A stretch of DNA of 64,000 bases from Ginglymostoma cirratum (taxonomy: Eukaryota), in the NCBI GenBank assembly GCA_024137785.1, contig JAHRHZ010000013.1, forward strand, positions 28,539,003-28,603,002, read 5' to 3'. The stretch's first letter is position 1. Every line of letters begins with the position of its first letter. Both the position numbers and the translations under genes were made by a program. Below are positions 7,116-56,020 of this stretch, piece after piece. The notes under the pieces are model-generated. The model was given only the letters and a program-made list of their open reading frames with translations. It ran no database searches and was not told the origin of the DNA.

Positions 7116-8269
7116 CACAACAAATCTTTCTTTGCGGGGATATGTCTACATTGTGCCCATAGAATCTCATTGTGAATCTCTTCAGTTGATTTACTGCTGA
7201 CTTTCCTCCAGTAGCTGTAACTAGACCACCAATCATTGGCAGATCATCTCGCAGTTTTGTAACAATTAACATCATCCAATTTGTAACCTTTACTCCTGTT
7301 CAATCTTTGTCTCTTTCCGTTGTGATGCCAAATCTAACAACATTATGATCACTATTTCTAAAATAGTCACCCACTTTTACTTTATCCACTGCCCAGTTTC
7401 ATTTCCTCAGACTAAATCTAGGATTTCACCCTCTCTTATTGGGCCTATTATGTTCTGGATAAAATAAAAAATCTTAAATGCAGTTCAAGAAGTTTGTCCC
7501 TTCTGTGCTTTTTATGCACTGTTCATATATTTGTTGTCATTCAGTCATTGAAGTCCCCAACAATTATTGCCTTGTTGATTATGCTGTTAAATTTTCCTAC
7601 GTATTTGCTCCTCCAACTCTTGCAAACTAATTAGGGATCCATTGTGTACACTTGGCAATACGGCTGCTCCTTATGTTTCTGAGCCCAACACATATACCCA
7701 TATGATTGTCCAGCCTGTCCACGATTCCCAGAATTTACCCAATTGCCCCAGGAGTCTGATGTTCACCTGCCTATACCACTTCTTTAGCTACATATTCAAT
7801 GGCTTAATTCTCCTTTCTGTATACTCACTAACGCATGTGATCAGGAAGAATCCTGAGAAAACCACTTTGAAGGTTCAACCTGTCATGTGCCTAGCTTCCT
7901 GTACTATGCATTCTGGACCTCATCCTTATTCCTACTTAAGCCATCAGTACCAACACAAGATAACAACCTCTGGCTGATCCCCCTCCCACAGAAGGATGGC
8001 CCAACACGAAGGAGGTAACAAACTGTCCTGGAGTTATGTCACAGTGACAGCAATACCTGTCCAATCATCTGACTGTGGAGTACCCTATCACTACCTATTC
8101 TACTTACAGACCCACACCCCACTCCAATATCACCACTACTGACACAGCTGAGCTGTCCATGCAGTCACTGAGATAAAAGGTACTGCAGATGCTGGAGAAT
8201 CCGAGATAACAAGGCGTGGGGCTGGATGAACACAGCAGGCCAAGCAGCATCACAGGAGCAGGAAAACTT

Positions 8270-8297
8270 GACGTTTCGGGCCTAGACCCGTCATCAG
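8270..8297 (-). ncRNA. Minimal hammerhead ribozyme motif, antisense arm
   Basis: Reverse complement reads CTGATGAcGGGTCTAGGCCCGAAACGTC. Confidence 0.7.
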
Positions 8298-8316
8298 AAC
8301 CCTCTTCCCCTCCCCC

Positions 8317-8352
8317 ATTTCTGATGAAGGGTCTAGGCCCGAAACGTCAAGT
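8317..8352 (+). ncRNA. Minimal type-I hammerhead ribozyme motif (Penelope-type)
   Basis: attt-CTGATGA-a-GGGTctagGCCC-GAAAC-GTC-aagt: core, stem II, self-complementary ACGU stem III, predicted cleavage after C8348, weak 4 bp stem I. Confidence 0.75.
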
Positions 8353-9435
8353 TTTCCTGCTCCTGTGATGCTGCTTGGCCTGCTGTGTTCATCTAGCCCC
8401 ACGCCTTGTTATCATGGAGTCCCTGATTTGGGTTTGGCTGCACTCTTCTGATCAAATCTTATCTTCACCCTCACTATCATCCACAATATCAAGAGTATTG
8501 ATTAGCAAGAATGATAGACCAAGGGCATTCCAATATTGCCCACTTGGTATTCTTAGACTGCCCAATAGTTACCCATTCCTATATTCCCAGTGTATCTTTG
8601 ACTTGCGGTGTGGCAGCCTCTGTAAAGTGCTATCTTTGTGAACGTCTGCCTCTTGGATGGACAACAGTGATGCCAGCCACCAAGGGATGTTCTGAAACCC
8701 AGAGGTCAAGCTTGTGCAACTGGTGACATTTCCTGCAGATGACTGCATCTGAAATGCATGACTTCATACATTCTGCAGGATATACAATCTATTTGGCCAA
8801 GCTGACCTGCCATCCCATTACTTTAAAAAAAATCTATCTATTACAAATGTAATTGAAAAAAAAGTGCCAGTTCTCAAAAATTTGTTTCTTCCGTTGTACC
8901 AAAGGAACAGCCAACTACAGCAGGCTAAAAGCAGCAGAAAAAGAAAGGAGACCTTGCTCTTGTCCCTCACCAAACTCCCTCATACCGAATTCCCATTTCA
9001 CATTCTGTACAGTCAAAACAGCACTCACTGCATACAGGCAGCACTGAGGGAGGTCTCTATTTATGCTTCCTGCAAACGACTGTTGCAAACTTCAAAAAAT
9101 TAGAATATACCAGCTATTAATTAACTCGCAACAGCTTCTCTCAGAGCTTGTAAACCCTTGAAATAAGGCAGCAATAAAACTTAATTTCTCTTAAGGTAGA
9201 GTGTAATGTTTAGTTAATTGCTAAATTAAAGGAAAAACTAGACTTCAGACAGAAAAAAAACCTTATGATTCTCACACAGTGCAGCTCTCAGTGCAGGTAA
9301 ACTCCCTGGATCTACTTATCGACTCAGAGAAATTAGGTCAAATACCTGGGGAGAGCTGGATAAGGAAAAACAACACATACAATAAATACTCACAAAGAAT
9401 TAAGCAAAATAACTCATTTATGTACATATATAACT

Positions 9436-9660
9436 GGGTTAGTTAGCTCAGTTGTCTGGATGGCTAGATTATGATACAAAGTGATGCCAGCAGAGTGGGT
9501 TAAATTCCCACGCTTTCTTAAGTTAGCCTGAAGGACTCCCCTTCTCAACCTCTGCCCTTGCATGAGGTGTGGTGACCTTTAGGTTAAACCATCACTGGGC
9601 CTCTCTCTCTGATAAGAGGTCAGCCTATAGTCCAGCAGGGCTATAATAACTTTGCCTTTA
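9436..9660 (+). mobile_element. tRNA-head SINE (~220 bp family), copy 2
   Basis: gggttagttagctcagttg (A-box-like) and gggttaaattccc; body similar to 2008-2222. Confidence 0.75.
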
Positions 9661-9712
9661 TAACAATTAATCAAAATTAGTGTATTAGGGATAAAAAAGC
9701 TTGTGGAGGGAT

Positions 9713-10079
9713 GTTGTGTACAGACTTCAGAACCCTGGAACAGGCTTGCGATGATGTCACAGTGGTGCACACCCATGAGCATAAATAGCGAAGTGTGGGT
9801 AGAACTCGATGATTCTACGCCAGGCTGTCCTCTGGTAGCAGCCTCATAGAGTGCATGCATATGAATACATGAAGAAGATAAACTACTCTTTACCTAAGGT
9901 AACTATAAGATCAATGCCCGGTGTAGCTATGATTACCAGACATAACGTAGTTTAGTAACAATAAATAGTGTTACTTTGAGGTCTAAGCCTGAAGACAGTT
10001 TTTGACTCTCCTTTTTCCTCAATTGGTCTGTCTTGAACAAAATTTCACAATGTCTCATCAAACCACAAGATAAAAATCA
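9713..10079 (+). mobile_element. Possible solo LTR inserted in CR1 sequence
   Basis: TGTTGTG...ATCA termini, TATA-like ataaatag ~9781, AATAAA ~9960; flanks resemble CR1; TSD only 3/5 match. Confidence 0.4.
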
Positions 10080-11660: not shown

Positions 11661-12069
11661 CTGCTGATCTGGTAACTCCTTAAACTGAAAGCCAGCTTCA
11701 TCTTCATCACTTGTGTTTACTCGCCCGCACTGGCATCATCCTGATTTTAAAATTCTTAATTCTATTTACTAACATTAATTTCCTTCACTTCTCCCTTCCC
11801 AAAAGACCTTTATCTACCCAGCTTTTCTGGTAAGTTATTGCTGTTTTCTTCTGTAAAGATAGAACTACTATTGATGCTTAATTACTCTGCTAATTCCTTG
11901 TGCTCCATTATCAAATCTCCCATTTCAGACTGTAAAGAGCCTAGATATGTCCATTCTGAAGAATGATGCAAAGTCATCACTGAGGACTGTGCCATTCCTC
12001 TGGGTCCACACACAGATTATTTCTATGGTCCTTAATAGCCCCTACTCATTCCCTTTCTTGCTCTTTATA

Positions 12070-12972
12070 CATAGGTGCGAAGGCAAGTGGTGAAGATGAC
12101 ACAGAGACTGTAGAGAGGGATATAGACAGCAAAAAGTTGGCAAATGGAATATTATGTGGGAAAATGTAAAGTTATGCACATTGGCAGGAAGAATAGAGGA
12201 GCTGAGTATTAATTAAATGGCAAAAGACTAGAGAAACCTACAGAACAGAGGGACATGGGAGTCCTTGCATGACTCACAAAGTCTAGCATTTAAATTCAGT
12301 GGGTAATATGGATAGCAAATGGAATGCTGGTCTTTATTTCAAAGGGAACAAAGTACAATAGGAAGGATTTTTTTCTAAACTATACAAGGCACTGGTCAGA
12401 CCATAGCTGGAATACTGTGAACAGATTTAGGCCTCTTATCTAAGGAAATATATACTGGCATTGCAGGCAGTCCAGAGTAGGTTCACTGCTCTGATACTAG
12501 GTAAGCAGGGGCTTTATTACGAGGAGAAGTTGAGTAAGTCATGCCTGTACTCATTTGAATTTAGAAGAATGAGAATTGACCTTATTTAAACATACAAGAC
12601 ACTTAGAGGACTTGACAGGGTAGATGCGGTGAGGTTGTAGGAGAGTACTTGTGGGCAACTCTAGGACAAGGTGGCATAATCTCAAAATAAAGAGTCACAC
12701 TTTTAAGACAGAGAGAAGGAGGAATTTCTCCTCTCAGAGGGTAGTGAATCTGTGGAATATTTTTCCACAGGGGGCTGTTGAGGTTTGATCATTTAAGTAT
12801 ATTCAGAGCTGAGACACACTGGTTTTTAATCTAAAAGGGTATCAAGGGTCATAAGGAAAAGGCAGCAAAGTGGAATTGAGGATTATCATATCAGCCATGA
12901 TCTCATTGAATTGCAGAGCAGACCCAATGGGCTGAATGGCCTGCTTCTCCTCCCGCATCTTATGGTGTTATA
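12070..12972 (+). mobile_element. CR1 LINE 3' fragment
   Basis: tggcaaatggaatattatgtgggaaaatgtaaagttatgcac..ctggaatactgtgaacag..; 3' tail gaatggcctgcttctcctcccgcatcttatggt. Confidence 0.88.
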
Positions 12973-15520: not shown

Positions 15521-15521
15521 A

Positions 15522-16780
15522 GCATATTGATAAAACACACATTTTCTCAAAGCTTTTTGTCTTGAACACATCAGGGTAATTCACAAGGGTATCAATTTAA
15601 GGAGAAATTTATATGAGAGGAGAGTGTTGATTGGAAAGTGTATTCTAATTGGTAGAGGTGCTGGTAAAGGAAATGCACCAGTTAATGATGATTTGCAGTC
15701 AACTGCCAAGCTTTATTTAAGTTTTAATTAGGTTGATCCTGAGTTGTCTGATTTTCCTGAGAAATGAACTAGTAGTAGATTTGGTTGTCAACATAATTCT
15801 TCATACATTCAACATTATGCACAAAATGTTAGCTCATTGCAAAATCACATCATGTATTGGACACTGCAAGTTTTGCAAGTGCAGGCTGGCTGGGTACAAA
15901 CAATATCTTGTTTGTTTCAACCAGTAAAAGAGATAATCTACCTCAGATTATCATGAAAGGGTAACCTCAAATTTAAGTAACAGATGATGAAGAGTCACAC
16001 TGGACTTGAAACATTGACTGTCTCCACAGATACTGCCAGACTTGTTGAGTTTCCCCAACACTTCCCATTTTTATTTCTGTTTCACACTGTTACTATGCAG
16101 TAGCAACATCAATGGTCGGAATACTACCATCAAGCCAAAATTATGTTCTTCCTATTACACAAATGAGTAATATGGTATATGAATTTCAGTGCTGCTGTAA
16201 TGCCAGGTATGAATGCTATATATCCCAAAGACTGGAAGTCTGTATAAAGCACCATATTCCTTCAGCTATTCACAGCAAGCAAAGTGCTGACCGTTCCCAA
16301 CTAATCCATGCTTGCAAATCTCTCAACACATATCAGATGTGACATTTGCTGCATACCCTGAGTGTATGAAGAATTACACCGAGAACCAATTTAAAATTGT
16401 CAGTTGGGTTTGGAATGTTCCACATTCTTTGCAAATAGAAGGAACATGGGCACACCCACCACAGTTGTTTCAATTCAATTCAACAAACTAGGTGTTAACC
16501 ATATACTTAACCAATCAAAGTCAAGCTGCCTGGTTTAAGATTCAAACATAGCCTGGTATTCAGTGGTAAATCATTGTTAACTGGTACATCTTCATGGTAA
16601 CACTGCTACCATTCGAAGTTTACTCGCCACCCAGTCAGTACTCTCTTCTCGTTCATTTTAAATACATGATTTTCTCACACATTGGTTTTTCCCTTAAACT
16701 ATTACTTCTGTGAATTGTCTTGATGAGTGCAAGATAAAAAGTTTTGACAAAATATGTCTTTTTTACCACATATTCAAGTT
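15522..16780 (+). mobile_element. Penelope-like element relic (family 3): GIY-YIG endonuclease fragment between inverted terminal repeats carrying decayed HHRs
   Basis: ORF 16112-16342 SNMVYEFQCCCNARYECYISQRLEVCIKHH resembles the PLE GIY-YIG motif VY.F.C.C...YVG.T...L..RI.EH; ~15525-15725 is the diverged reverse complement of ~16540-16775; ttgatgagtgcaagataaaaagtttt is a decayed core. Confidence 0.82.
15980..16085 (+). mobile_element. Family-2 Penelope HHR fragment nested inside the family-3 element
   Basis: gatgatgaagagtcacactggacttgaaacattgactgtctccacagatactgccagacttgttgagtttc. Confidence 0.7.
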
Positions 16781-18020: not shown

Positions 18021-18324
18021 AAGATAATTATAAAAATCCAGAAAAATACGATCTGTTAGCTTTGCAGATTGTCTAGGAAATTGCATGCATTACATTACAA
18101 TACAGAAGTTGCAGGAGTCTAAAGTATTTTCAAAGTAATTGCCTATTCACTTTTTACTAACCATGTACACTTCAGATTTAGCACAGAATCCAGACTCTTC
18201 AGTGTCTAGCCATCATCATGTGATCTATTATATCATTAGCAACATACTTTCCATTTAGACAGTCAAGTGTTAATCCTTTCTCGATTGGGATAGATTTAAA
18301 AAGCAGTAACACATTCAAGGAACT

Positions 18325-18455
18325 TCAGAAGATATGTCACTGGACTTGAAGCATTAACTCTGCTTTCCCTCCACGGATGCTGCCAGACCTGCTGAGTTTC
18401 TCCAGCAATTTCAATTTTAGTTTCAGCTTTCCAGCATCCACAGTTATTTGTTTAG
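18325..18455 (+). mobile_element. Family-2 Penelope HHR fragment
   Basis: ggacttgaagcattaactctgctttccctccacggatgctgccagacctgctgagtttctccagc..ttccagcatccacagt. Confidence 0.75.
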
Positions 18456-19438
18456 TTTTAGTGTATAACATATTCAAAGACTTCAGAAAAGAAAGGGAGG
18501 TTAAGGATGGGGTAACAGTTTGCAAGGAGCATGGAGTCATAGGGCTTTGTTTGAGCAGAGACTTGCTAACAGCAGATTTGAATGAGACAGGGATAGTACC
18601 TCAATAGAAACAATTACTCAAATCAACAGCTGATGCGGAGACCAGAAGCAGAACTTGGATGGTTGGCAGTTTAATAAGAATAGTTTCAATAAAGCAGAGG
18701 TGGGTCTCAATGATGAGTGGATCAACGAGCTGACAAGCAAGGCTCACAGCAGTCGCACAGGTTCTAGAGGCCACAGGGAGTGGGAGAAATGGACAGGGTG
18801 GAGGCGGTGAAACTGCCTGATCCAAGTGGCAGCCATCTGAGAATGACAGGTATATCATTGTGGTAATAGCCTATAACAAGGTGTGAACTGTAGATTGAAG
18901 CAGTTCAAACTGCTCAAAATAGTCAGCGCACTTTATATATTTTTTTCAAATTGACATTTATGATGAGGATAAATGCTTTGTGCAATTTATACAATGTATA
19001 GATATATGTATATACTGAATAATCTCCTTTATTAAGCACTTGGTGAGTCGAGACAAATTGTCACCTTCAGTAAAAAAAACCAGCTTAGAGGGCAGGCAAG
19101 AATTGGAACTGGACATCCAGGTACAATATAGGTCTCATCTCGCAAGTTATGAATTCTGTCCTCTTTATACTCTGACAAGAAAGTTGACAATTACAGCTGA
19201 TCCTTTAATTTGCAGAGCTCTGCATATAAATGTTAGTACAAACATAGGGGAACGAGTTGCTACAAAATGTTGGAATGTACTTGCATTATTCAATATTGCA
19301 ATATTAAACATTGTTTTGCACATTGAAAATCATGGGGTGCCCACCTACTATTTCCCAATATGCGCTCCTAGTGGGCAGGGCTTCCTACTGGTAATACACT
19401 TTGAGAAATTCATCCAAACCAAGTACATTTTATTCTCG

Positions 19439-19662
19439 AGATAGTAGGAACTGCAGATGCTGGAGAATCTGAGATAACACGGTGTTGGGCTGGATGAACA
19501 CAGCAGGCCAAGCAGCATCAGAGGAGCAGGAAAGCTGACGTTTCGGGCCTAGACCCTTTTTTTTTTTCTGAAGAAGGGTCTAGGCCCAAAACTTCAGCTT
19601 TCCTAATCCTCTGATTGCTGCTTGGCCTGCTGTGTTCGTTCAGCTCTACACCTTGTTATCTC
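19439..19662. mobile_element. Penelope-derived palindromic HHR element (family 1), copy B
   Basis: Arms 19471-~19558 and ~19574-19662 around a poly-T spacer; perfect 14 bp TSD acattttattctcg at 19425-19438 and 19663-19676; + core ctgaagaagggtctaggcccaaaac is mutated. Confidence 0.92.
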
Positions 19663-19764
19663 ACATTTTATTCTCGTTGAGGTACAGAGTGATTGTCATT
19701 TACTAAGAATGTTATCCAGTTATCTACTGCTGGATCTCAGTTTGTTTTTACCTTTGCTCCACAG

Positions 19765-19984: not shown

Positions 19985-20560
19985 ACAAAAAAGCAAAATG
20001 TTGCACGTTTTAGATCAAAATAAAAGCTGCAAATTCTGGAATCACTTAGCAGGCCAGGCAAGATATAAAGGAAAAGAAAGTCAGGTTAATGTTTCAAATT
20101 TGTCTGTTTGGTTGGAATGGGAAAATAATGGTGAGCATTAAAAAGCAAAACAGCCAAGGAAAAATGACCCAGGATAAAAATTAAAAAGAACTCCATGATT
20201 AGGTGGAGGATGAGGTGACATAAAGAGATAATAGTGTAAAGCAAGAGGAAATGGTAATGAGACCATTTGAAAAATAAAAGATATGCTTGAGATCCAAGGG
20301 TGCCGAAGAATACAAGAAAGGGAGAGAAGCCTGGAAATCTAATGAAATAGTAAAATTACAGTGACCCCCAAGCCTAGTGGGAGGGAAAGGCTGGTAGACC
20401 AGAAAATTGAGGGCTTGATTGTCATTCTGAGCACCAGTCTACAACTTCATTCACTACAGAAAGCATTGGTGTTGCCATCCAACAAGAATTGGTCATTCTT
20501 TATTCTAACTCTGGATGGGATGAAAGTGTATGGTGAACATATACACTCAGCTTTCAGATC
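19985..20560 (-). mobile_element. Old Penelope-like remnant
   Basis: Family-2-like terminus (aagcaaaatgttgc..ttagcaggccaggcaag..gttaatgtttcaa) followed by a purine-rich tract. Confidence 0.45.
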
Positions 20561-22047: not shown

Positions 22048-22360
22048 GGGCACGGTGGCTCAGTGGTTAGCACTGCTGCCTCCCAGCACCAGGGATCTGG
22101 GTTCAATTCCACCGGGTGACTGTCTGTGTGGAGTTTGCACGTTCTCCCTGTGTCAGCGCAGGTTTCCTCCCAGTGTTCTGGCTTCTCCCACAGTCCAAAG
22201 ATGTGCACGATAGGTGGATTGGCCATGCTAAATTGCCTGTAGTGTTCAGGGATGTGTAGATTAGGTTGGTTATAGGGATGGGTCTGGGTGGGATGCTCTG
22301 AGGGTTGGTGTGGACTTGTTAGGCTGTAGAGCCTGTTTCCACACTGTATGGATTCTATGA
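22048..22360 (+). mobile_element. HE1-type V-SINE
   Basis: gggcacggtggctcagtggttagcactgctgcctcccagcaccagggatctgggttcaattcc..tgtgtggagtttgcacgttctccctgtgtc..gcctgtttccacactgtatggattctatga. Confidence 0.95.
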
Positions 22361-27282: not shown

Positions 27283-27284
<2 letters not shown>

Positions 27285-27499: not shown

Positions 27500-29220
27500 C
27501 AATGGTACATTCTTGAAAGTTCTGAATCTAATTTTTAGGCTGCATCTCATCATCCTAGATTACATGACCAGTGAAAATAGCTTCTCTTTGGCTAGCCGAT
27601 CAGTTCCCCTTAAAACCTTGGAAACTTTGATCAAGTCACCTCTTAATATTCAAATCGAGGAAATACATCCCTAGTTTAAATAATGTGCCCTCTTTATTTA
27701 AACTTCGGCATTCACGCTTCAATCTTGTAAATCTGTACTGAACTTCCTATAGGATCAGTGTACTTTTCCTAAAGTACACTGCTCATAAATGAATACAGTG
27801 CTCCAGGTATGGCCCAATCAGGACTTGACACAATTGAAGCTTGAGTTTTCATCCTATGTATCTTGATGTTCAAGAGATCACAGCATTCTGTTGAACTTTG
27901 TGAGTATTTTTGGCATTTGTTCATGATATTTTAATGATCTATATACATGGACCTCCAGATCTCTTTGGAAATCTACTGCTTCTTGGTTACTATTTAGGAT
28001 CTACTCTTATCAATCTTTTATTGGTGCCAAGTGGTCACCTTACATTTGGGTAGATTGGAATCTACTTGACAGAGTTCTCCTATTCACTTAACTTATCAAT
28101 TCCTCTATGTAGTTTTATGCTGCCATCTTCACTGCTCACAATGCAACCCTTCCTTATATCACTGGCAAATTTGGATATGTTACTCTTCATCCTGTCATCT
28201 GAATTATTGAAGAATGCAATAATAATAGGTGAAGCTTCAACACAAGTCCTTGGGAACAATAGTAACCTCCTATCAAGTAGACTACATGCTTGTTATTCCT
28301 ATTCTCTGCCTCTTACTGCTCAGCCAATCTGCTAACTAGGTCAAAGGCTTCCATTCGGTTCCACTACTTTCAACTTTAGTTAATAGGTTGTTCTGTGGGA
28401 CTTTATCAAACACTTCTTGAAAGCCATATAAAACAATACACACAATAATTATTCATATTTATATTATGTCAGTTCTGCAAAAGGTGATATTAGACATGAT
28501 CTTTACAAATGAATATAAAACAGGTCTAGCAGCATACAGAGAGAGAAAACAAAGTTAATGGTTCAAGACAAATATGATTCTTCTTCAGACTGGACCTTTT
28601 GCAAAATTCATAAGGATACTTCGATCAGCTGAAAAATTTCAAGATGTTCAGTCAATGTATCTTCAATTATAGACTCTAATTATTTCCCAACAACAGATGT
28701 TTGGCTAACTGGCCTATAATTCACTGGTTTTCCTCTCTCCCTTTCTTAATAACAACCTGACATGTAATTTGCCAATCTAAAGGACCAGTTCCTAATTAGT
28801 GAGAATTTTGGAAGATTATAGTTAGGGTGTCTGCAATTTTCTCATCTACTTCCTTTAATCTCTGGGATGAAAGTCATTTATAGTAGGAATTTGTCACACT
28901 TTAGTGCCATTATTTTCTTCATTATTGGTAATTTGCCTCTGTTGATTTTGATGAATTCTCACCCCTGCTTCAATATTAGTTTCTTTCGAATGTCCAATAT
29001 GTTATTCTCTTCCTTCACTATGAATACTAATACAAAATAATAATTTAACTTGTTCATTATTCCCTTATTTTCATATATAATGTCAACATTACCAATTCTA
29101 AAGGGAATTACATTGCTCGTAAACCACCTCCTTTTTCCTAATACATACGTTTTTGTTAACTTTTAGTTAATTTTGATATCCTTTCAAGTTTTTTTTTAAT
29201 AGTCCCTTTTTACCTCTTAA
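27500..29220 (-). mobile_element. Old CR1 LINE ORF2 fragment, interrupted at ~28515-28590 by a family-2 Penelope piece
   Basis: Similar to 3600-5150 (ggactttatcaaacacttcttgaaagccata; tatttcccaacaacagatgtttggctaactggcctataatt). Confidence 0.75.
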
Positions 29221-29435: not shown

Positions 29436-30401
29436 CTAATGAGATGAACAACAAAGATTTGTGTAAGAAAACTCACTAAAGCTCACAGAGAGAAACCCTT
29501 CATGAAACTCCCCAAAACTGACATTTAGATGGCTTCTGGTAAAATTCAGACCTTGCTGTCCTCTCATAGGCGTGTGGGATATCAGTAGAATTGGTGGAGC
29601 AAATATAAACTGAACCCATTAACTCCTCGTGAACCATTACCCCATGCAACACCTCTCACTGATTTTCTAGCATTTTATCCATTGACAAGTTTGCCCAGCT
29701 TCCTGGGAACATTGTCTGTATCATTCCCTTACCTAAACCCAGGATAATAATAGCTGAATTATTTATCTCCCTATCAAATACGAAGGACAAAAAAACCCGC
29801 TTAGGCTGCCACCTGGGATGCATGAATTTCACTCAACACAGTTTGAGGTCCTTTCCAGATATTATGTCCTGACATATAATCCTTTTATGCTCCTATTATC
29901 TTCCTAGAAAAATAAATATGATGAGAACCAGGATCGGCCCAGCCAGCAACACCCACATTTCATGAACAAATCAAAAAATGATCTTGATCATCAACTGCAA
30001 ATTCTAAGTAGTTTTTTTTTGTATCCCTCAGCCCTCCATGCCACTGGTCCTGAATTACAACTAGTTTTTCTCCTAAATCCCATAAGTATCCTCTCCGGAC
30101 TCATCTAGCCCATGAGATCCACCTCTTATTTCATCTATCCCATTCACCGGAAACTACTGACAATCCAACATCTCTTTTAACTGCACTTTTCCAACGTTAT
30201 TTGCCCTGGAACCAACTGTTCCTCAAGTTAATTAGTAATTCTACTTCGAGCTGCCAATCCCTTCGCTTGTGGTCTCCAATTCACTGTTCATTCACCTCAT
30301 CCTTGTTCCTGCAAAGAGCTGATCATCTTTCCCAAATGCCTGCTCGCATTCATTTGGTTTCAATCACCCTGAAATAAAACTTGACAGTATTTTGCTTACA
30401 A

Positions 30402-30500
30402 CTTTGATGAAGAATCATCTAGACTTGAAACGTTAGCTTGCTCTCCCTCCATGGATGCTGTCTGATCCACTGTGATCTTGACCATTCGTTGTTTACAGTT
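30402..30500 (+). mobile_element. Family-2 Penelope HHR fragment
   Basis: ttTGATGAagaatcatctagacttGAAACGTTagcttgctctccctccatggatgctgtctg. Confidence 0.75.
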
Positions 30501-31715
30501 TTGCTCACAACTGTTTTGTCATCCATCATCACATATCTCTGGAGCACAGCAAGCATTTTTCAATCTCATTGACCATTGCCAATACTAGCTGTTTACACCT
30601 CCCTGTTACCTCTCTTAACTTCTTAATTGTCTCTGTCAGTCAGACTAGCATCCAGTTTTGGAGAAGCTGCAATTTTCTTCAAAGAAAGTTTGGGAGACCA
30701 AAACAATTGTATTCAAACACTACAGACTCCATATCCTCACCGTAAATTCTGCGCCACTCTGGACAGTATCAGGTTGGACAACTTTGATGTGGTAGTCAGC
30801 CCTCAGATGCTCTTTCAGTTTCATACTGTCTTCATCACAGGGTCACCTACTGTCATCTTCACGTTGGTTTCCTGGTGCATGCCTTCTTCAGCCCACTTGC
30901 CACAGGAATCCACATCCATGCTTTTGTTACTTCTAAATTTCATTATATTAATATCCTTGTGGCCATCTTTCATTTTCCATCCTCCACATGTTTCAACTGA
31001 TCAAAATCTCTGATGCCCCTTCCAAACTTGCACCAAGTCCCATTCATTCAACACCACTGTGCTCACCATCTACCAATGTTTTGATTTTAAGACTTTCATT
31101 TCAAGTTCAAATCTTTCATTCCTACCCAATTTTGAAACCTCTTCCATCTCTGCAAACCCCCAAGGACTCTGAGATATTTTTTGCATATCTCATCCCTTTC
31201 ATTTCAATGTTCAATCCATGCAGTTTCTAACTGTGAAGTGGGTACAGTGAGTGATGACAATGCGTAATTCATCACGGTTTGTAGTGGCTGAAATAGGGAG
31301 GACTGACACATCTAACAGGAGGCTTGATGCATACATGAGCAAGATAGGAATTAACGGATAAAGGAGACAAGGTGGAAAGAAATAATTAGACAGAAAGAAG
31401 CCTTATGTTGAGTATAAACATTGACACAATTCAGTTGTGTCAAATGGCTGTTTCTGTCCTTTTAAACCAATGTAATTTTCTCTTCATTAGCAGCCATACC
31501 TTTAACTATCTCCACCCCATTCTCTGGAAGTTCCAAACTTCTCCATCTCTCCACTTTTTATCCCACCTTTAAGAGACTCCTTAAAACCCATCACTTTGAT
31601 TGATTCTATCAATATTTCTCCTTGGGTAGAGTGTTCAGCTTTGTGTCTGATTATGCTTCTGGAGAATTTATTTGTGTTAAAGTCAATGCACAAATTCAAA
31701 TTATTGTTGTGTGGA
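30500..31715 (+). mobile_element. Decayed L2-clade LINE pieces, with a CR1 3' piece at ~31240-31480
   Basis: RT-like remnants in ORF 30627; L2-like tail tttgtgttaaagtcaatgcacaaattcaaattattgttgt. Confidence 0.5.
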
Positions 31716-32317: not shown

Positions 32318-32462
32318 ACAACGAAATAAAGCAAAGAACTATGGACGCTGGAGATCTGAAACAAAAAATAGAAACTGCTGTAAAAACTCTGTAGATCTGG
32401 TAACATCTGTGGAGAAAAAAAGACACAGTTAATGTTTCAAATCTAGTGACCTTTCTCCAGAA
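32318..32462 (-). mobile_element. Family-2 Penelope terminal fragment
   Basis: aaagcaaagaactatggacgctggagatctgaaac..catctgtggag..gttaatgtttcaaatctagtgacc (reverse complement of the HHR region). Confidence 0.75.
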
Positions 32463-34499
32463 CTGTTGTATCGTCACAACTTTGTGATTTGAGTATAATT
32501 GGGCTCCCTGTAACTTACAGTATGATTGCAGTTTTATTGCAGCCTCAACAGCAGTATATGTTTCTGTATCCACTACTATTGGGGTTTTGGGAACCATAAT
32601 ATCTTGGCCAATATCACACACAACATGATCTAAGTTGGCATATTTATCACACCTTAATGAATAATTGCACCAATTTGTCCAATTCTGCAAGGCTTCAGGT
32701 ACTGCTACTAAGCTTCTCGCTGTTTATATATCAATCAGGAATTGAATTTAGTGAGAATAAAACCTGCACTTATCTCAGTATACACTCATTGTCTGAAGTA
32801 AACAGACATGACTGTAACTGAATTTATGGCTATTTGATCTTTACCACACCATCTCTTTCTGATTTCTAGTATTTTAATGTATCCGAGATTTGAAATGAAG
32901 TTGATAAATTTGTATAGAAACCACAATTTGGATCTCAGCTGTATCAGATGTATGGAAATTTAATGCAATGCTAATATCAAACAGCAAGTGCTGGAGAAAC
33001 TCAGCTGGACTGACACCTCATGGGAGAGATAGTGGAACGTGTGATGAATCCAGATATGGGTATTCCAAGAGGGAAACCTTTATCCATTGTCTCAGCTTCT
33101 CAAAGGAAGGCTATTTGATAACTAATGGACAACGTATGTTCATGTTCCTCATTTTACAACAAACTGAAGAGAACAGATGTAAAAATCTCAGCCCTTTCTA
33201 CTTGAAGCCATAGTTGTAGAGATTATACAGGTATAGCAGGGTGCAGTGACCACTGTAGAAATACACAGAAAGAGTATTCTCAGGATGAGTGGCAACTTGG
33301 TAGTTGTCATGAGGGAGTGCACTGTTTGATATGGCTGATGCCTTTAACACAATAACCATTTCAGTGCAAACATCGGGGAATGTGATGTAGTGGACATGCT
33401 CATTGCCTCACTGTCTCACTGTTGTTTTATCATTAATGCTAGTTGAGGGTGAAACTTGCTTAGGCATTTCAGCTTTCACAAGGTGAGCACATCGGATCCA
33501 CATTCAAAAGGAGAAGTGAACATTTTATCGAAGGTAGTAATGGACAAGAACAGAAGGTTAAACTATTAGAAATGTGTGATACACAGGCTGAGGTCTGTCT
33601 ACAGACTGCTGGAATAAAACTATTACCAACAAATAAAATGCTTCCACACAGATCAGACATCCCGAAGATAGGAGGCCATAAGGTTCTCTCTCGCCTCTTG
33701 TGCTCTGTGGACTATTGCTCTGTCTTTCTCTTTATGGTGTTCCTCCTGGCCTACCATATCCTAACCTTCATCATTCTCTTCAGAAGATTCCTGTCTCTTA
33801 GTCATTACTTCCTCATCCAACACATTCCAGCTTTGGCAATCAGATTGAGGAGAGCACAACACATTACTATTGGTAGAACACCCTGACTGGGCTATGCCAC
33901 TTGGCATCACCTAACTGATCCAGGCATCAGATCTGCATTTTTAGGAGGCCTATGGTAAATAGTACCCCGTAGCAGATCTGCAAGGCTCAGACTGCTTTTA
34001 CGAGACTGCAAAAGCATATCCTTTTTTGCAGTTCTTACTATTGCAGTCATTTTGCGCATTCACTAGGGTCAGTTCAATGTTTTTTATTTCACTTCGGTTT
34101 TACTTTCAGTTTTACCTTGTCTCCGACTTCATTAGTTATCCATGTTTCTTGTTAAGGAAGTAATATTCTTGTCCCATAGGGGATAAACTGGTTCTGTACC
34201 ACATTATACTCTTCTTTTGAACACCTCCCATGGATCTTCTATCATTCTATCCATGAACAGATTTGTCCAGCTTACTATGGCAGTCTCCATCTCATTCAAT
34301 TGAACTAAGTCTTACTAACCTTAGTAGTTGTTGTCTGTTTCTCCTTTGTAAACATTTCACTGAACTCGATAATATTATGATTACCATTAGAGAAATTGTC
34401 ACAAACCAACAGCTCATTAACTAAATCTGGCTTATTATTAAAACTAAGGTGGCATGGCTATTTGTAACTTCTCAACGTGTTGTTGTAGAAAAGTATCCT

Positions 34500-35070
34500 A
34501 TGCACCACATTTTAAGGGGCATGTGAAAGTTTAAGATATGGAGTAAAGACAATTTTAAAAATGGGTTCCAGAGATGAGGGGCTTCTGTAACACAGGCAAA
34601 TCAACACTGGTGCAGAAGTTCTAAGGAAGGGTTACTCAACCCGAAACATTAACTCTGATTTCTCTCCACAGATGCTGACAGACCTGCTGAGCTTTTACAG
34701 CAATTTATATTTTTGTTTCTGATTTACAGCATCTGTAGTTCTTTTGGTTTTTATATCAAGACTGGTGATTGGAAAAGAGAAGTTAGAGAGGAGATTTGAA
34801 AGAGAAGCTCAAAATCATAAAGAGAATGGACAGAATAAATAGAAAGAATCAGTTCATATTGACAGCAGAGTAAAGAATCAGAGGTCACTAATTTAAGATG
34901 ATTGACAAAGAACCAAAAGTAACATGGGAAAGAAATGTTTTGTACAATGTGGAGTTAGGATCTGACTACACTGTCTGAGACCACGGTGGAGGTAAATTCT
35001 TGCAGAAAGTGAGCAGAGACATGACTGGCATAATTGCAGAATGGCCCTCTTCTGTGTTTATTCTATGAGT
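34500..35070 (+). mobile_element. CR1 3' fragment interrupted by a family-2 Penelope HHR insert (~34615-34755)
   Basis: gagaagttagagaggagatttgaaagag CR1 motif; insert ctaaggaagggttactcaacccGAAACattaactctgatttctctccacagatgctg. Confidence 0.75.
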
Positions 35071-36859
35071 TGATAATAATATTGCAAAACAAGATATTAC
35101 AGATGCTAGAAATCAGCAACAAACACAGAAATAAAATAAACTAGAAGTGCTGGAAATATTCAACGGTCCACTAGCCTTTCATCAAATTCCGTATCCTGCT
35201 CAGGAAATTCCCGACCATTGTGAAATGTTCTGGTTTGATTATCCTAATCCAGTTAGTATTCACCATGTAACACATTGCCTTTTACAACAAGTTTGTTTAT
35301 TCTTTGCTTTTATACAATTGAACACTTCACAGCTGCTACCAGTGGTCCTACCAATCCCACTACAGTATTAAATCCTTTTCTACTTCCTAATTCTACACAT
35401 TAACCTCTACTACCTGATTAGCCCTCATATATCGTCTTTTATCATTAACGTAATTTAATCGTCAATCACTAGGTTCACTCTACCATTATTTCCCATAACC
35501 AGTTCCATGTCCTGATCACTTTGCATCCACGTCTCAGTACAGCCTACCAGGTCATATACTCCAAATTGAATTCACACCTCTAATTAATTTAAACTGTTCC
35601 TTATATCCCATACTTCTTGGCACACAGCATAACCTGTCCTTCTGTTCTCATGTTTTACTTACATGTTTCTAGCTTATCTCTTTTGAATTAATTACATTGC
35701 AACTTTCAGATTTTGTAGCATTGAAAACATGATTTCTGACTGTTGCTCCACTCTCTTTGATCTGATCATAATGTCCTCGGATCACACTGCAGCTCAATAA
35801 TTCTGATTTGGAAAGAACTGAAACAGGAACATTTGCTGCAATGTGGTTGCTCAGAATGGTCACAAACTCCTGCACATTGCAGTCGAGACACACAACTGAT
35901 CAAATACATCTTAGTCTAGATTGCTTGCATTATTCATGTTTATGTTATAGTTTCTTCTAAATTTTGTTTTCTCTTTTTCTCTGGAGTTACCAGTCCTCTG
36001 CATGAAAACACTGGACAAAAACATTCACTTAAAACGTCCACAGCAAAGCCAGAATTTTATGCTGGGTCAGGTTGAGAGGGCCGGGGAAGCGGGAGAATTG
36101 GAAGACCTGGGAGGAAGGCCCACTAATGTGCACAGCAAATCCATTAAGGAAATATCCACCTTGAACATGACCAGCACCAGCTGTGAAATTACTAGGCTTC
36201 AAACTTGGTGCCAACCTTCCTAACTGCAGAGAAAATTGCAGCAGCAGCAGGAGGAAGCTCTTAAGTCACCATTAATTGTTCAAAGAAGGGCCTCCATAAA
36301 CTCAAGGGTGGGCAGGACTCCCAAGACCTGGCATGGGTAAATATACAGCAAGGCTCGGAATGGTGCCCATGTCACAATGCCCAATTTTACAGCACATTCA
36401 TGCCTGCCACCCTGCTGCCAGGGGTCTGTAAAATCTTGGTTCAAGTATTGGTGGAAAAAGCAGTTGCACCATCCTCTTTTACACTGAGTTTCTACCCCTC
36501 ACCCAATGACAAGCTTCCACACTCTGCTAACAATCATCCAGGATTCCAGCTTAAATCATCAATCAGACACTGTAGTAGAGGGTTTGAAGGGGAGCCAGAT
36601 TGAGATTGCATTCCATTGTGATGCCCTTCATTGTTGAATGAATGGTCCCTGGGGGACACTTTTGCATTCAGCTGTAAATGGGTGTGATGACAACAATGTA
36701 TAGCCCTCACCTACTGTGTTGGTGGGAAAGCCTTAAATCACTTCCAAGTTCAGCTTTCATTAATGTTTTCTAAATGAGCTGCAATTACTGACCAGGTACG
36801 ACTCTACAGCTCACCACCTTCTATAGGGCAAAATCAATGTAATAACAGGAAGTACCTTA

Positions 36860-36970
36860 ATAAAAGCAAAATACTGCAAATGCTGGAGATCCAAAAAGGA
36901 CTCAAAAAGTTAACGCTATTTCTCCCTCTGAGAGATGCTGAGAGATGTATTGAGTTTATCCAGCTCTTAC
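36860..36970. mobile_element. Collapsed family-2 Penelope fold-back fragment
   Basis: aaaagcaaaatactgcaaatgctggagatcc..ggactcaaaaagttaacgctatttctccctctgagagatgctg. Confidence 0.6.
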
Positions 36971-37747
36971 TATCGAAAAACAGGTGGGATGTTTTGGGTT
37001 TTGGGAACAGATTTCAAAACTGATGGGACCAATAACCAAGCTGAAAGCAGATTCTCCAAACTTTTTTGTGGGCCTTGAGAACATGTCTGCTATTCCTGGC
37101 CCAACAAAACTCATTTATGTTGTAAATCCTGGCACAAAATGGGAAAAGGAACTCAGCACCTGCTCCTTCAGACACACATATGCAGTTTCTCCATTATGCA
37201 CGTGATTCTTGTTAGAACCACTCTCAACCTCATCCTCATATCCAATCTCACTCCTGCCCATTCCCAAGCTATCTCCCACTTCCACCACACCTATTTCTGA
37301 CTCGCTTCCCCCTTCCCAGCCCATCTCCTGCCTCTTCCCAACACATTGTCCACTCTTGACTATTTGCCATTCCATTCATTGGGAAGTGCTTCTCCTCATG
37401 TCACAATGTTGCCAAGTGGAGCCAAAATACAAGTCTGCCCATTTTGGACTGACTACCTGTGGTAACTTTAAAGATTGCTGGTTAAGTATCTCAGTGCCTG
37501 AGGCATTGGACATGGCATGTGCTAGGCATATTTCAACCATTCCTCCTTGAAAGATCTAATCAGCTTCCTGCAACAGGTGTAGGATATTGATCTACATATT
37601 TAACTAACCTCAATGTCTGTTTAGGGCAGTAGCTCTGGTCACTCATTTAACTTATTGCAAGGCAAATGGAAGGCAAGGCAAATTTTCAACAGCTATTCAT
37701 TTTCCTTTTAGCTACAAATCAGGTAGCCAGCCATTAATACTCTTTAC

Positions 37748-50610: not shown

Positions 50611-53600
50611 CCCTGATCTAATGTGCTTGATATCTTTGTCTAGTACAAGGTGATCTCTGCCCTGAAATAATTCCAGTTTACTCTTCGGGAAATCTTTTGG
50701 ATTTCACCTTCCCTCAGCCCCTTCTTTCCTTAGATCGTAGCAGAATATCTGATACTCCAGATGACTATTCCATGAATGAATATGTACTGTATGGACATAT
50801 TATGAAACTGGGTTTGTTTTGAAAATAAATGTAGTTGCACTAGTAGTGTAAAAGTATCGGAACAGCACGCTATTTGCTCACATTCACTATTTCTGTACAT
50901 TCCTAATTTTTTTGTTTAAAAATTTGACAAGATCTTTGGCGGCAGAAGTATGGAAAAATGGCATTACTTCAGCAAGCCAGTAAATCCTGTTCCAAATCCT
51001 GCGAATGGAGTCATTTCATTAATCAACCAGGCACTTACAGTAACACAACTCAGAAACACAACTGCTGTAGAGGAGGAGTGCAGTGCAGCCCTGCCAGGAG
51101 TACCGCAAAAAAAGTGCCAAAAAGAAATCATCTTGCACAACTGATAATAAATGAGTCAGATGTTTTCTTAAATGTCACCTCTGGGATTGATGAATTTTTT
51201 TGTGTCCCAGTTTAGAGATCTGCAGGAGGCTGAGAAGGCTTTGGCTGCTCTCAGCATCCTCGAAGCTAGCTGTGAACATAGCAGCAGCAGGTTGATGAAA
51301 CATGAATAGTAAGGAAGTATTATGTGTGTTGACTCCTAATAATTTATCCAATGAGGCTTTGAAAGTCCACATAATATACTGGTGATTAATGAAAGCTATA
51401 TCATATGATAAAGGATGGCAACAAACCTTCTGCTTACTTAAATTAACATGAACTTCCATTATAAAGTTGTATGCTCTTCTTTGAATGGTCCTTTTGTTAC
51501 ATCAAATAAATATTTTTATTATACTGTTTGCTTCCAAATGGCACGATATTCCACAGATACCTCTAAGAATCATCTGAAAGATAGATTTTTGAATTTTGTT
51601 TGAAAAAACCATAAACTGTTCTTCCTAATTTATGCCTGGAATTAATCAAGTGAAATTAGGCCATCAGTTTAGGAGGAGGAAGTTCCCAAGTGTCTCTCAA
51701 TCAAATTATCTCTCCATGACAGTCTTGAACTGTGGGTGAAATATGTCTCCCACTAAAGATGCAATATGACTGTACCAGTATTAAAAAGAAACTAATTTAA
51801 CACAACTTTTCCTTATTAAAAATATATTCCCTACCACACGCTTTCATCATCAAAATCAGCACATATTATCTACTGACCCATTCTCCTCCACCAATTCATT
51901 GCTTTCAGAATATTACTGATCACACTTGATCCATACCCTATGCAATGTGTCTTTGCTGTTTCTGTTAAGACGGAAGCATTAGCAATGGGGCTAAAAAGAC
52001 TGAAGTATTTGCAATAGGGCTAAAAGTGCAAGTGCACAATTATTTTGAGATTCTTTGAGACCACTTTAATATCCTCATCCTCACTGTATGCTCAAAATGA
52101 ATCGGGGGAAATAGGGCCAGATACTTACCTCATGAATCGCACCACACTCCCACCTATTGCCAATTTATTTCTTGTGTTTCAGAATGTGTGTGAGTCATTT
52201 ACTGCAGACAGGGGAGGACCTCACACAAAGACTTACGGTGCAAGTAAGATCCCTATACGACCTTAACAAGTAGCTGTGTGTGTCTGGCTTAATGATGGGC
52301 TCGTCAAAGAAACATAGGATCAGGCATGGTCTCTATCTGCAATATAGAGATTCTATGATTCTATGACTAGTAGATATTCTTTGTAAAAATTATGATTTGG
52401 GTCCAGGAGGAGTAGGTGTATTTCTCCGCACCCCACAATGAAACCTTGGAACCATGGGTCCCCTGTATATTGACTTTACCTCCACCTCCCGCCAGGTCAA
52501 CAATCATCTTTGGATCCCCACAGCACACCAACGCAAGTGTCCAAAGCAGGCTGCTTGTATCCTAAGAAATACTGCCCACCTGAAATTTCTCCTACCTAAC
52601 CATCAGCCCCAGGAAGAATCTTCATTTCCAAATGGATTTGAGACCTAGAGCTTAAACAGCTAGCATTTTGAGGTGCAGAGAAGGCTGGGTTATGTACGGA
52701 TGTGGATAAACATCCTCGACCCACTTGATTCCACCCACTAAAACTGGGGCATTTTTTCATTAAATACTAATTCATTTGACTGCATTTCAAAGCATTTTCC
52801 ACTTATAAGACTTCAATATCAATTGTAACTTGCCTAGATGATTTACATTTATTAACATTCAAAAATCGTTCACAATTCTGAACAAGTGAAGACAACTTGG
52901 ATGGCTATGGAACATAACTTACTTAGGCTAGGAAGCACAAACCCCTTCCATTGCTGTTTGAGATTTTTATACCTGTTGCACAACAATGTAGTTAGTCTGG
53001 CTGTCATGCAGCAGTGCACTTGGAAAGACTGGCAATGTACGCTGGGAGTGTATTTAGCTGCCATACTGAATGGTTCTATGATGTGGTTTGAGCATGGCAT
53101 AAATTAAGCTGTCATTTTTTGGCAGCATGTGCAGTGAGGCGATTTTGCTGTACTGTAACATTTGAGATGACAATTTTCTGCCTTTAACAGTTACTGACAG
53201 ATTTGTGTGATACATGCTTGAAGTGTCTGCTTGAGGGGCTGCAGTTAGAAATTGCCCTGTAGGTAAGGTATTGCCTGCATGAGCTAATCAAGCAGCCATT
53301 CACTGAGATACTTGATGCTTTATCTTTTGTTATGTTCGTTCATCTTAATCAATTGAAGAAACATTTTTTCTCAAAGTGTTTTTCATTAAGGCTAGATTTC
53401 GTAATCAAAATGACGACTAGGTAACAAGCTTGAAAGTACAAATAGCCTGTCTACTACCACGCTGTATGCGCTTGTTTAATGTTATTTTTGGAAAAATATT
53501 TCTGCAACGATTATATCAAATACCATCTGGATCCTCCAGGAAAGTCCACTCACAGTCAATAGTAGTGTATAGAGAGACAGCATGACCTTTTAGCAGTATC

Positions 53601-53869
53601 TTAAATAGCCTCCTTTTTATACTTCATCACAGCTCTCGCTTATAAATGTAGGGTTATGCAGTTTATGGAAGGTGCTAATGTTTTATATTAGCTTAGGAGC
53701 CACATGGAGCTAAAGGAGTAGCTCTTGTAGGCAACAGGGAGTTAAGAACAAATAAGCAGGTACAGCGGAATGCCAAGTGTTACTGAAAGGAACTCATTTC
53801 TTGCTCCATGCGTTTAATTAAAAAACGCATAATAACGTTTGGTAACAGCAACAGTACTTTTCTCAAAAA

Positions 53870-53950
53870 ACAGAAGAAGGGGCCCAACTTTCCTGCTGCT
53901 CTGATGCTACCTGGCCTGTTGTGTTCCTCCAGCTCCACACTGTGTTATCT
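53870..53950 (+). mobile_element. Family-1 single arm with internally deleted HHR
   Basis: cagaagaaggggcccaactttcctgctgctctgatgctacctggcctgttgtgttcctccagctccacactgtgttatct. Confidence 0.8.
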
Positions 53951-54269
53951 ATGGAAAAGAAAGATGTATACCTGATAGAGGCTTCATTTAAAAATAACAG
54001 GAAGGACAGATGAAGAGGTGATTCCTCTTTGAGTAGAGTATTTTGAGTAGACAGTAACACACACAGGGAGCATAATATAGGTGCTGTCCAGGAGTTTCCA
54101 GCCATTAATTTTAATGTATACAAGATCATAGGCTGTTCACCCATGGAGGTGTGGGGCTTGGAGAGATGAGGTGTAATCTTCACCTTCTGAGCCTGGCAGT
54201 AATCACTCATCCATTTCAATCCATTGAGTTTAATGAGGTGAAAATTGGGTGGGTTGATATATTAGATAG

Positions 54270-55600
54270 GTGACTCCCTGATGTACACTCCCTTTGAACA
54301 ATACTACCCACTAGGAGGGTGGGCCCATGGAATCACCCCTTTATTCAAAGCTTCTGGTTTATGTAAAGTGGATGAAGAAATACAAATCTGTCTCCCGAAT
54401 ACACGTAAAAGGGAAAGAGAGACAAAACATTCTCTATTCATTTTTAAGCAGAGAGGTGGGGAACAATTTAATCATGAGAGACATTACAATAGTACGGATA
54501 TCATTTTCAATAGGCCAAAATTGAATCAGATGAAACAACTTGTAGATGGTATTGTTAGAACATACAAAGTATAGGGCAGAGTACTGAAAACATGATGCAC
54601 TACACAATGATTTGTGATGGTTGGACTACAAGATGAAAGGCTGTTGGAAAGGCTTCAGCTTGATTCTGAGTTTACACTTGAAAAGGTAATATAGAATGAA
54701 GCTGTTAAAATCAACAGGCAGTAGTTAGAAACCAGCCAAATGGGAAAATAGGTGGCCTGAAGGCAGAGGAAAGAATCTTAGCAGCCAAATTCCTCCTGAA
54801 GAAATTTGCAATAAACACACTCACAGATAAACTGGAAGCTGGGTTTGCATCTTGGCAAATGTTCTAATAGAGACATCACACACTAATTAGTAAAATAAAC
54901 ATTTCTACACAATATCCCCCCAAAACATTATCGCACTCAAGAAAATTGAACATGAAAATATAACTGTCCAGTGACAGGAACTTTAGATTAGAGGCAATGG
55001 GAATGGGAGAAGTAGATGACAGAGAAAAATATTCCAAACTGTTCCACAGTATGGGAATACCTTCTGGAAACATCGATCAATGTGAAACACAAGCACAAAA
55101 TTAATCCTATTCCTTGTTTCCAAGTGTAGAACTATTCCAATGCTACCAAGGGTTAAAGAGGAACTTGCCAGAATGGCATAGCTAGTTGTAGCTTCTGAGC
55201 TGGAAGCACCCACAAAACTGGCATGTTGACATTTTCATTGTCCCAAATCTAAAGGACACATCACAATGTTGCTTGGATTTGGCTCAGTGCAATGCAAGTG
55301 CATTTTGTCAGAAAGAGTGCCACCATCAGCAGACCAGACGACCAGACATTAAATCAGACTTTAATCCTGCTGGAAAGACCAAAAGTCTTTTCCAAACTAG
55401 ATGCCAATTCAAGTTTTTGGCTAACAGTAACTTTGTCAGCCCTGTTAACAATATTTATTGCAGTACTCATGCAATTTTGCTTCAAAAGGCAATCAGGATT
55501 TCCTCAACTTTGGCATCTTTTCAGAGGATGATGTTACGGTTGTTAGAAAGTGTGATAGATCCAGAATTCATCTTGTTTCAATTTAGTGGAATTTTATAAC
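54270..55600 (+). mobile_element. Decayed Ty3/Gypsy LTR-retrotransposon internal region (gag + RT start)
   Basis: Gag-like FKASGL..EEIQI (ORF 54281) and VMVGLQDERLLERLQLDSEFTLEKVI (~54610-54690); PMLPRVKEELARM (~55140); RT motif KVFSKLDANSSFW (ORF 55292). Confidence 0.85.
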
Positions 55601-55807
55601 ATCTCATTTTGTTTGCAACTTTCCTGACTATTGTAACCATTTAAAAAGCTTCTGTTAACTAAATTTTGAGGAAAGAAAACTCGCTTTTGCCTTTCTGAGG
55701 AGGGGGACATGGAGCAAATTGACACATGAGCTGAGAATTTCCATTTTCAGTGAAGAATGATGCAGAATGGCTTCAATAAAAATGTCAACCCAAGCAGAGA
55801 AAGGTAT

Positions 55808-56020
55808 CAGAGATAATAGGAACTGCAGATGCTGGAGAATCCGAGATAACAAAGTGTGGAGCTGGATGAACACAGCAGGCCAAGCAGCATCATAGGAGCA
55901 GGAAAGCTTGACGTTTCGGGCCATTTCTGATGAAGGGTCTAGGCCCGAAACGTCAAGCTTTCCTGCTCCTATGATGCTGCTTGGCCCGTTGGGTTCATCC
56001 AGCTCCACACCTTGTTATCT
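55808..56020. mobile_element. Penelope-derived palindromic HHR element (family 1), copy C
   Basis: Arms 55843-55922 and ~55941-56020; intact + core ctgatgaagggtctaggcccgaaacgtc (55927-55954); perfect 13 bp TSD cagagaaaggtat at 55795-55807 and 56021-56033. Confidence 0.93.

Follow-up and report, generated by a model that had tools for sequence, protein, structure and literature searches.

The 64,000-nucleotide stretch of DNA analyzed here (contig JAHRHZ010000013.1 of Ginglymostoma cirratum, positions 28,539,003–28,603,002; hereafter the window, from which all copies were taken and to which all coordinates refer) contains three short palindromes, A (8170–8412), B (19438–19662), and C (55808–56020). 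Each is a single insertion of the end of a Penelope-like pseudo-long terminal repeat (pLTR) and comprises a minimal hammerhead and two head-to-head arms, one of which bears a 33-nt tail, within a 13–14-bp target duplication. The whole insertion consists of the pLTR end alone, about 210–240 bp in length, without the coding part. Family copies were located by comparing the window with itself, which revealed three inverted pairs (8197–8421, 19466–19667, and 55840–56024) and two solo copies, D and E, and the scores of target duplications were judged against those obtained at 400 randomly chosen pairs of positions. The copies and their parts are as follows.

8158–8171, plus strand: left target-site duplication of A, 14 bp with two mismatches to the right copy (equal score at 5 of 400 random pairs)
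8170–8299, minus strand: long arm of A, with the 33-nt tail at 8170–8202 between two TATCTC motifs
8300–8318, plus strand: C-rich "spacer" of A, native element sequence 5′ of the ribozyme, retained in the short arm only
8319–8412, plus strand: short (tail-less) arm of A, with the minimal hammerhead core at 8321–8348 and the predicted cut after 8348
8413–8426, plus strand: right target-site duplication of A; a relative's single-copy contig begins aligning at exactly 8413, suggesting an empty site
19425–19438, plus strand: left target-site duplication of B, 14 bp, exact (score reached at 1 of 400 random pairs)
19438–19558, minus strand: long arm of B, with the tail at 19438–19470
19557–19567, plus strand: junction of B, a run of 11 T in which one arm ends TT and the other begins TTT
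19564–19662, plus strand: short arm of B, the most decayed of the six arms
19663–19676, plus strand: right target-site duplication of B, pairing with 19425–19438
55795–55807, plus strand: left target-site duplication of C, 13 bp, exact (score reached at 1 of 400 random pairs)
55808–55922, minus strand: long arm of C, with the tail at 55810–55842 and without the first 15 nt of the ribozyme core
55921–56020, plus strand: short arm of C, whose initial CC is common with the long-arm end (2-nt microhomology)
56021–56033, plus strand: right target-site duplication of C, pairing with 55795–55807
63242–63337, minus strand: D, a solo tail-less copy of the same family with B's markers; its 14-bp duplication (63232–63245 and 63331–63344, one mismatch) overlaps both ends
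53885–53950, plus strand: E, a decayed solo fragment of the same family with no convincing duplication

In A, B, and C the 33-nt extension between the two TATCTC motifs is found on the minus-strand arm only, and the plus-strand arm ends at or within the inner TATCTC; the arms overlap over 81–95 nt. A miniature inverted-repeat transposable element, or another DNA transposon with terminal inverted repeats, was ruled out by the unequal ends, one of which is 33 nt longer, and by solo D with a duplication of its own. Two of the duplications share letters with the element. The copies flanking A differ at 2 of 14 positions although the insertion looks young, and one right-copy change gives the element's own next letters. 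In D, the duplication copy at 63331–63344 shares 7 nt with the 5′ end of the element, and at its one mismatch it has the element's letter; the 5′ junction of D looks as if it had been formed by annealing with one mismatch.

The sense strand of the element carries a CTGANGA...GAAAC core, found at 8321–8348, 55927, 63312–63336, and 8273–8297. Matched by hand to the features described in PMC4209133, this core has those of a minimal hammerhead of the Penelope-like element (PLE) type and is a predicted ribozyme. A search of the whole window against Rfam gave no match at the gathering score, and the same search of 8150–8450 gave 11 sub-gathering matches with no hammerhead among them, the best being microRNA precursor models that fit any long hairpin. 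Folding of the six single arms gave none better than its shuffles (z −0.95 to 0.22). The palindrome at 8253–8365 itself scores below threshold against several microRNA precursor models; if transcribed, such palindromes would form hairpins of about 95 bp.

The centers of the three palindromes lie at different positions relative to this core. On the coordinates of A, the start of the tailed arm is at 8319 in A, at 8327 in B, and at 8336 in C, and that of the tail-less arm at or before 8300 in A, at about 8317 in B, and at 8315 in C. A reading made earlier from the letters alone (the sequence-only reading) had proposed mapping the inversion breakpoints against the hammerhead core; they fall around the core start, all 5′ of the predicted cut site. 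Since all six arms extend 5′ of the predicted cut at 8348, the template would have been uncut there, and we rejected ribozyme cleavage as the cause of the breakpoints on the same ground. Two nucleotides of microhomology are visible as CC in C and as TT/TTT within the 11-T run in B, while the junction of A does not allow a judgment.

The same reading had described three different central junctions, which is correct, but what it called a C-rich spacer in A is native element sequence 5′ of the ribozyme. This follows from two comparisons: the C short arm is identical to 8315–8334 at 20 of 20 positions, and family contigs of relatives extend from 8300–8305 into the arm (for example 8300–8393, with 9 other letters), so that the "spacer" is the native upstream sequence in sense orientation. 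The relatives' data are contigs of four public runs (X3, X10, and X1 from organism A and X18 from organism B; 4 of 24 listed runs, with no run listed as RNA) aligned to 8300–8600, and they show presence only.

Three older inverted copies, related to the family, were recognized with a profile whose seed comprised nine related older copies; as a control, the reversed window gave a best match of E 2.3.

6891–7114: head-to-head copy with a tail arm at 6891–7020 (minus strand, model 23–141) and a tail-less arm at 7018–7114 (plus strand, model 9–105), both arms in the profile seed
36862–36973: inverted copy with non-overlapping arms, a tail piece at 36862–36896 (minus strand, model 106–140, E 0.018) and a tail-less arm at 36899–36973 (plus strand, model 28–100), from the profile
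50473–50610: inverted copy with about 10 nt of overlap, a tail piece at 50473–50523 (minus strand, model 95–145, E 0.0018) and a tail-less arm at 50518–50610 (plus strand, model 13–105), the plus arm in the seed

The tail arms of these copies start at model positions 23 (6.9 kb), 106 (36.9 kb), and 95 (50.5 kb), and in the latter two the arms have no overlap or one of about 10 nt, a shape like that of L1 twin priming. Across all six inverted copies (A, B, C, and the three older ones) it is the tail-less arm that extends further 5′ (6 of 6, p 0.03). The tailed arm also lies on the minus strand, on the left, in all six, an arrangement with a probability of about 3% by chance, and solo copies occur on both strands; this shared strand could reflect host gene orientation or chance. 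The older related pLTR-like family has nine solo copies as well (15979–16086, 18318–18460, 20005–20099, 28519–28589, 30400–30506, 32322–32468, 32977–33032, 34612–34758, and 35088–35169), two of which have plausible 15-bp duplications.

Each arm thus has sequence that its partner lacks, the tail in the long arm and the 5′ extension in the short arm. Neither arm can therefore have arisen by fold-back copying of its partner, and two priming events are needed. Read from the target ends, both arms correspond to antisense cDNAs, the one on the top strand starting at the tail end and the one on the bottom strand 33 nt further in. We therefore consider it probable that both target strands prime cDNA on RNA at insertion and that the two products are joined head to head, that is, by twin priming. 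Each palindrome would then be one insertion of a 5′-truncated Penelope-like pLTR, with the inversion arising during insertion. An endonuclease would cleave both target strands with the 13–14-nt stagger seen in the duplications, and both 3′ ends would prime on the uncut sense RNA at the two observed positions, the tail end and a site 33 nt upstream, each after a TATCTC. The two cDNAs would halt near the hammerhead start, where the junctions lie, and would be joined there, in B and C across 2 nt of microhomology. The arms would come from one source element, probably from one RNA molecule, and would be identical at birth, later drifting like the long terminal repeats (LTRs) of a provirus. Their overlap may be due to displacement of one polymerase by the other, to the use of two sister RNAs, or to fold-back of the internal cDNA to the tail cDNA; the polarity of 6 of 6 copies favors either such fold-back or a single RNA on which the inner polymerase leads. 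Formation of the inversion afresh at insertion from one template, which the sequence-only reading had suggested, is thus the best-supported reading, although not in the form of a plain fold-back.

The target may also pair with the RNA at the inner start. Just past that start, target and RNA agree in A–D at 15 of 28 positions over the first 7 bases (p 0.004), and at 11 of 24 (p 0.047) when the first base, which may match by construction, is left out. This is a hint only, and it is contrary to an in vitro report of no homology (PMC11167929).

A further claim of the sequence-only reading was that the arms of each palindrome match each other better than they match other copies. Over the 78–79 columns common to the six arms (long and short arms of A, B, and C, with solo D compared as well), this stands for A, with one difference, and for C, with four, but not for B, whose arms differ at 10 of 78 columns. 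Between A, C, B-long, and D there are 5–8 differences; B-long differs from A-long at 6 of 78, from C-long at 6 of 78, and from solo D at 5 of 77, and is closer to all of these than to B-short. Conversely, B-short is nearer to D (9 of 78) than to its own partner, and the two markers that the B arms share occur in solo D as well. The individual letters were described accurately: both arms of A have cACaggag and ggaaAActtg, both arms of C have cATaggag and gaaagcttga, and both arms of B have the C base and the 1-nt gap, with two changes beside the marker in the right arm. Pairing the arms by locus is the best of the 15 possible pairings, with 15 differences against 20 for the next best, an outcome with a chance of 1 in 15; on five informative columns, the locus pairing has one difference and the next pairing five. 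The tree that had been proposed, built here from the window's arms, supports the A pair (97/99) and leaves the B and C arms without a supported grouping. In a by-eye comparison with a D-like ancestor, B-short has seven private changes and B-long three, an excess that is not significant (p 0.34). Judged by their letters, A, B, and C belong to three different subfamily types.

Contigs of the relatives place these markers in a wider family. At 8365, the site of the caC/caG/caT difference, the shares of depth in X3 are about 8% for G, 25% for A, and 67% for C, with similar values in X10 and X1, and those in X18 are 9, 54, and 37%; such shares, with depth summed over contigs, are a rough guide only. 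Dozens of contigs carry each of the two states at 8352, and dozens the 1-nt gap at 8350. The tested markers (8365, 8352, and 8350) are therefore pre-existing subfamily states and not private changes. For the G at 8403 and the C at 8399 that the arms of A share, the relatives' table has no rows, and family-wide status covers the other markers only. If both arms were drawn at random from the whole family, a match at 8365 in all three loci would have a probability of about 1.3% (0.08 × 0.25 × 0.67), but since only a few sources are active at once, this figure cannot tell a single RNA from two sister molecules. The subfamily make-up of X18 (organism B), possibly an RNA run, is unlike that of organism A: T accounts for about 79% of depth at 8352, and C>T for about half at 8333.

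Orthologous flanks were compared for locus A only. Each of the three organism A runs has a single-copy contig that begins aligning at exactly 8413 and continues to 8600, differing there at 4 of 188 letters; these flank contigs carry 683–1294 further letters that do not fit A's arm. Because the bases preceding A's two duplication copies differ, an empty site predicts an alignment start at 8413, and organism A appears to have an empty site at this locus. Palindrome A would then have been inserted after the split marked by about 2% divergence. Two of the four flank differences, which were not individually identified, may be the two mismatches of A's duplication. The opposite-strand joints listed in relatives are 8315/8353 and 8318/8354, in 1–4 contigs at a depth of 8.6–56, against 12.5–20 for the single-copy flank. 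Neither is the junction of A, B, or C, and both lie where contigs of another subfamily get clipped, which makes them weak evidence; the 12 rows listed out of 31 in a further table carry no strand and are left out of these joints. Short palindromic stubs look abundant in the relatives.

Among the alternatives to twin priming, pre-formed palindromic masters, one per subfamily, might be copied whole, their junctions being subfamily-specific or their centers later deleted. The three subfamily types of A, B, and C fit three junctions, and the markers are indeed pre-existing subfamily states. Palindromes are unstable, and their centers can be deleted with microhomology, a subject on which our literature search found nothing. 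Later deletion, however, would not hit the tailed arm preferentially in 6 of 6 copies, solo D has B's markers without an inversion, and A, although young, is already asymmetric. Weakly, given contigs that show presence only, the lack of a high-depth junction among the matches listed in relatives also speaks against such masters, and we regard them as unlikely. The sequence-only reading had named subfamilies with fixed junctions as the outcome that would overturn it: the tested markers did prove to be subfamily states, whereas fixed junctions are weakened by the relatives' joints, the 6 of 6 polarity, and solo D. Later homogenization of the arms, which that reading had offered as its other option, would have gene conversion or hairpin repair make arms alike that came from different templates or had diverged. 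Close inverted repeats can pair, the arms of A are very alike (2 differences in 95), and the G at 8403 and C at 8399 that they share are not shown to be family-wide. Against this, those shared states for which the relatives gave data are variants common in the family, and the similarity of the arms does not exceed that expected from their age: A's arms compare with 4 of 188 in its flank against the relative lacking the insertion (Fisher p 1), and the pooled arm differences, 19 of 266 (three of them alignment end effects), with 2 of 41 in the duplications (Fisher p 1). Moreover, all 16 single-arm changes in the core are confined to one arm, and the clusters in B-short and C-short stand uncorrected. 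With no sign of conversion and, at low power, no deficit of arm differences, homogenization is disfavored and not needed; of the alternatives, we give it the smallest chance.

Hardly more probable is a single priming followed by fold-back, in which the cDNA, or an antisense template as published for head-to-head pLTRs (the available part of PMC3846280), primes on and copies itself as the second arm. Identical arms and a loop retained on one side would be accounted for, and the 2-nt microhomologies at the B and C junctions agree with it. A self-copy, however, cannot contain what its template lacks, while here the tail is present in the long arm only and the sense-oriented 5′ extension in the short arm only; two of the older copies, in addition, have little or no arm overlap. 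Fold-back is viable only as a finishing step after two primings, or with an added template jump that supplies the tail.

Several points weigh against twin priming as we have set it out. Concordant arms fit one RNA and two RNAs of one active source alike, and the 10 of 78 differences between the B arms, together with their disagreement at informative column 91, are also expected from a mixed template pair. There are only three young palindromes, each of another subfamily type, so junctions within one subfamily cannot be compared. The tail pieces at 36.9 and 50.5 kb are weak matches (E 0.018 and 0.0018) with doubtful duplications. The divergence tests have low power, with 41 duplication bases and one ortholog, and the empty site in organism A is read from an alignment start only. 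In vitro, no start-site difference between the strands was reported (PMC11167929), and hence no constant long and short arm is predicted. Finally, no open reading frame with a telomerase-like reverse transcriptase and a GIY-YIG endonuclease is present among the 17 of at least 120 amino acids in the window; the two of these that were domain-scanned are RVT_1 and Exo_endo_phos pieces of another retroelement. No full-length copy of the element, around which tandem direct pLTRs would be expected, lies in the window either, and since the window has no open reading frame of the element, membership of Penelope rests on anatomy.

Twin priming nevertheless remains the reading that we prefer. Matching arms as such are expected under any one-event origin, so the match in which the sequence-only reading saw information about Penelope integration says less than was hoped; the informative features are the polarity of tail and 5′ end and the variable junction. 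A more specific proposal, which we put forward tentatively and hold to be less likely than not, is that PLEs as a rule use twin priming at two fixed sites of one uncut RNA when they integrate: a dimer would start cDNAs at the two TATCTC motifs 33 nt apart, partial target–RNA pairing would help the inner site, and the inner polymerase would always be ahead. If true, this two-site rule would account at once for the tail, for the head-to-head inversion, for the tail-less arm extending further 5′, and for the agreement between arms; it would also replace the model of antisense self-priming and turn arm divergence into an LTR-like clock of copy age. In any case, the stubs preserve, within about 230 bp, the two sites of priming, the stagger of the cuts, and the joint between the arms, offering many cases per genome in which twin priming can be tested against fold-back, and if arms are identical at birth, their divergence dates insertions.

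Other repeats lie nearby. A repeat of about 300 bp with four copies (5167–5488, 22050–22360, 56664–56887, and 60828–61013) looks like a tRNA-derived short interspersed element of sharks, putatively HE1. Broken pieces of a long interspersed element at 3578–4402 and 5806–6489 (minus strand), presumably CR1-like, have RVT_1 and Exo_endo_phos matches and are unrelated to the palindromes. A metagenome scan with a 27-nt motif of the family gave no match. A looser 20-nt motif gave 49 metagenome loci and one viral locus, which were rejected, as none of the 50 aligns to six family queries beyond 33 nt.

The layout found here has published counterparts. In the available parts of PMC8557442, PMC3846280, and PMC8969392, a head-to-head inverted, 5′-truncated pLTR with a one-sided tail of 30–40 bp and a target duplication is described for Penelope, including rotifer Pen2a, whose pLTR is inverted and whose tail and duplication measure 31 and 9 bp. 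The palindromes share with these insertions, as described there, the inversion, the tail on one end, the duplication, and the ribozyme in the pLTR, and differ in consisting of the pLTR end only (about 210–240 bp) and in having duplications of 13–14 bp. Those accounts, as far as available, contain no comparison of arms by locus; they attribute the tail to resolution by the endonuclease and regard self-priming as the source of the inversion, and PMC8557442 states the formation of the inverted structures as an open question; antisense self-priming alone does not give one-sided tails plus one-sided 5′ extensions. Our literature search found no work that applies twin priming to Penelope inversions or compares arms by locus, and the available part of the preprint 10.1101/2024.12.14.628481 contributed nothing on Penelope, but subscription papers and supplements lay largely outside it, and such work may be in print.

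The hammerheads likewise resemble those of metazoan PLEs, for which the available part of PMC4209133 gives a CUGANGA core, an unpaired base before helix II, a G-C closing pair, a palindromic ACGU, and a short helix I; these core features are present here by hand matching, in a shark, a group not among the genomes named in that part. It also reports Schistosoma hammerhead motifs in pairs 100–700 bp apart on opposite strands. The closest biochemical parallel is PAc, a Poseidon element of the green anole, which in vitro nicks both strands and elongates them, starting at two sites that mark the limits of the tail and using uncut RNA, and which is predicted to act as a dimer (PMC11167929). The structure of the insertions points to the same features: both strands cut and extended, two starts bounding the tail, and an uncut RNA. 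Unlike the PAc start site, which was not homologous to its target, the site here has a target with partial resemblance to the RNA immediately past the inner start, again as a hint only; inverted insertions are not discussed in that work. L1 twin priming, as described in the available part of PMC2837659, also places two inverted pieces of one element within one duplication, with an internal second priming and with microhomology at the inner joint present or absent. L1 pieces, however, have an internal deletion and start from the poly(A) and a variable inner site, whereas the palindromes of the window have a constant inner site, 33 nt from the end, and an arm overlap of 81–95 nt in the young copies, so this would be twin priming in its working but not in the L1 form. 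The structure itself is already known, and the family described here is a further Penelope-like case, in which de novo formation of the inversion is favored.

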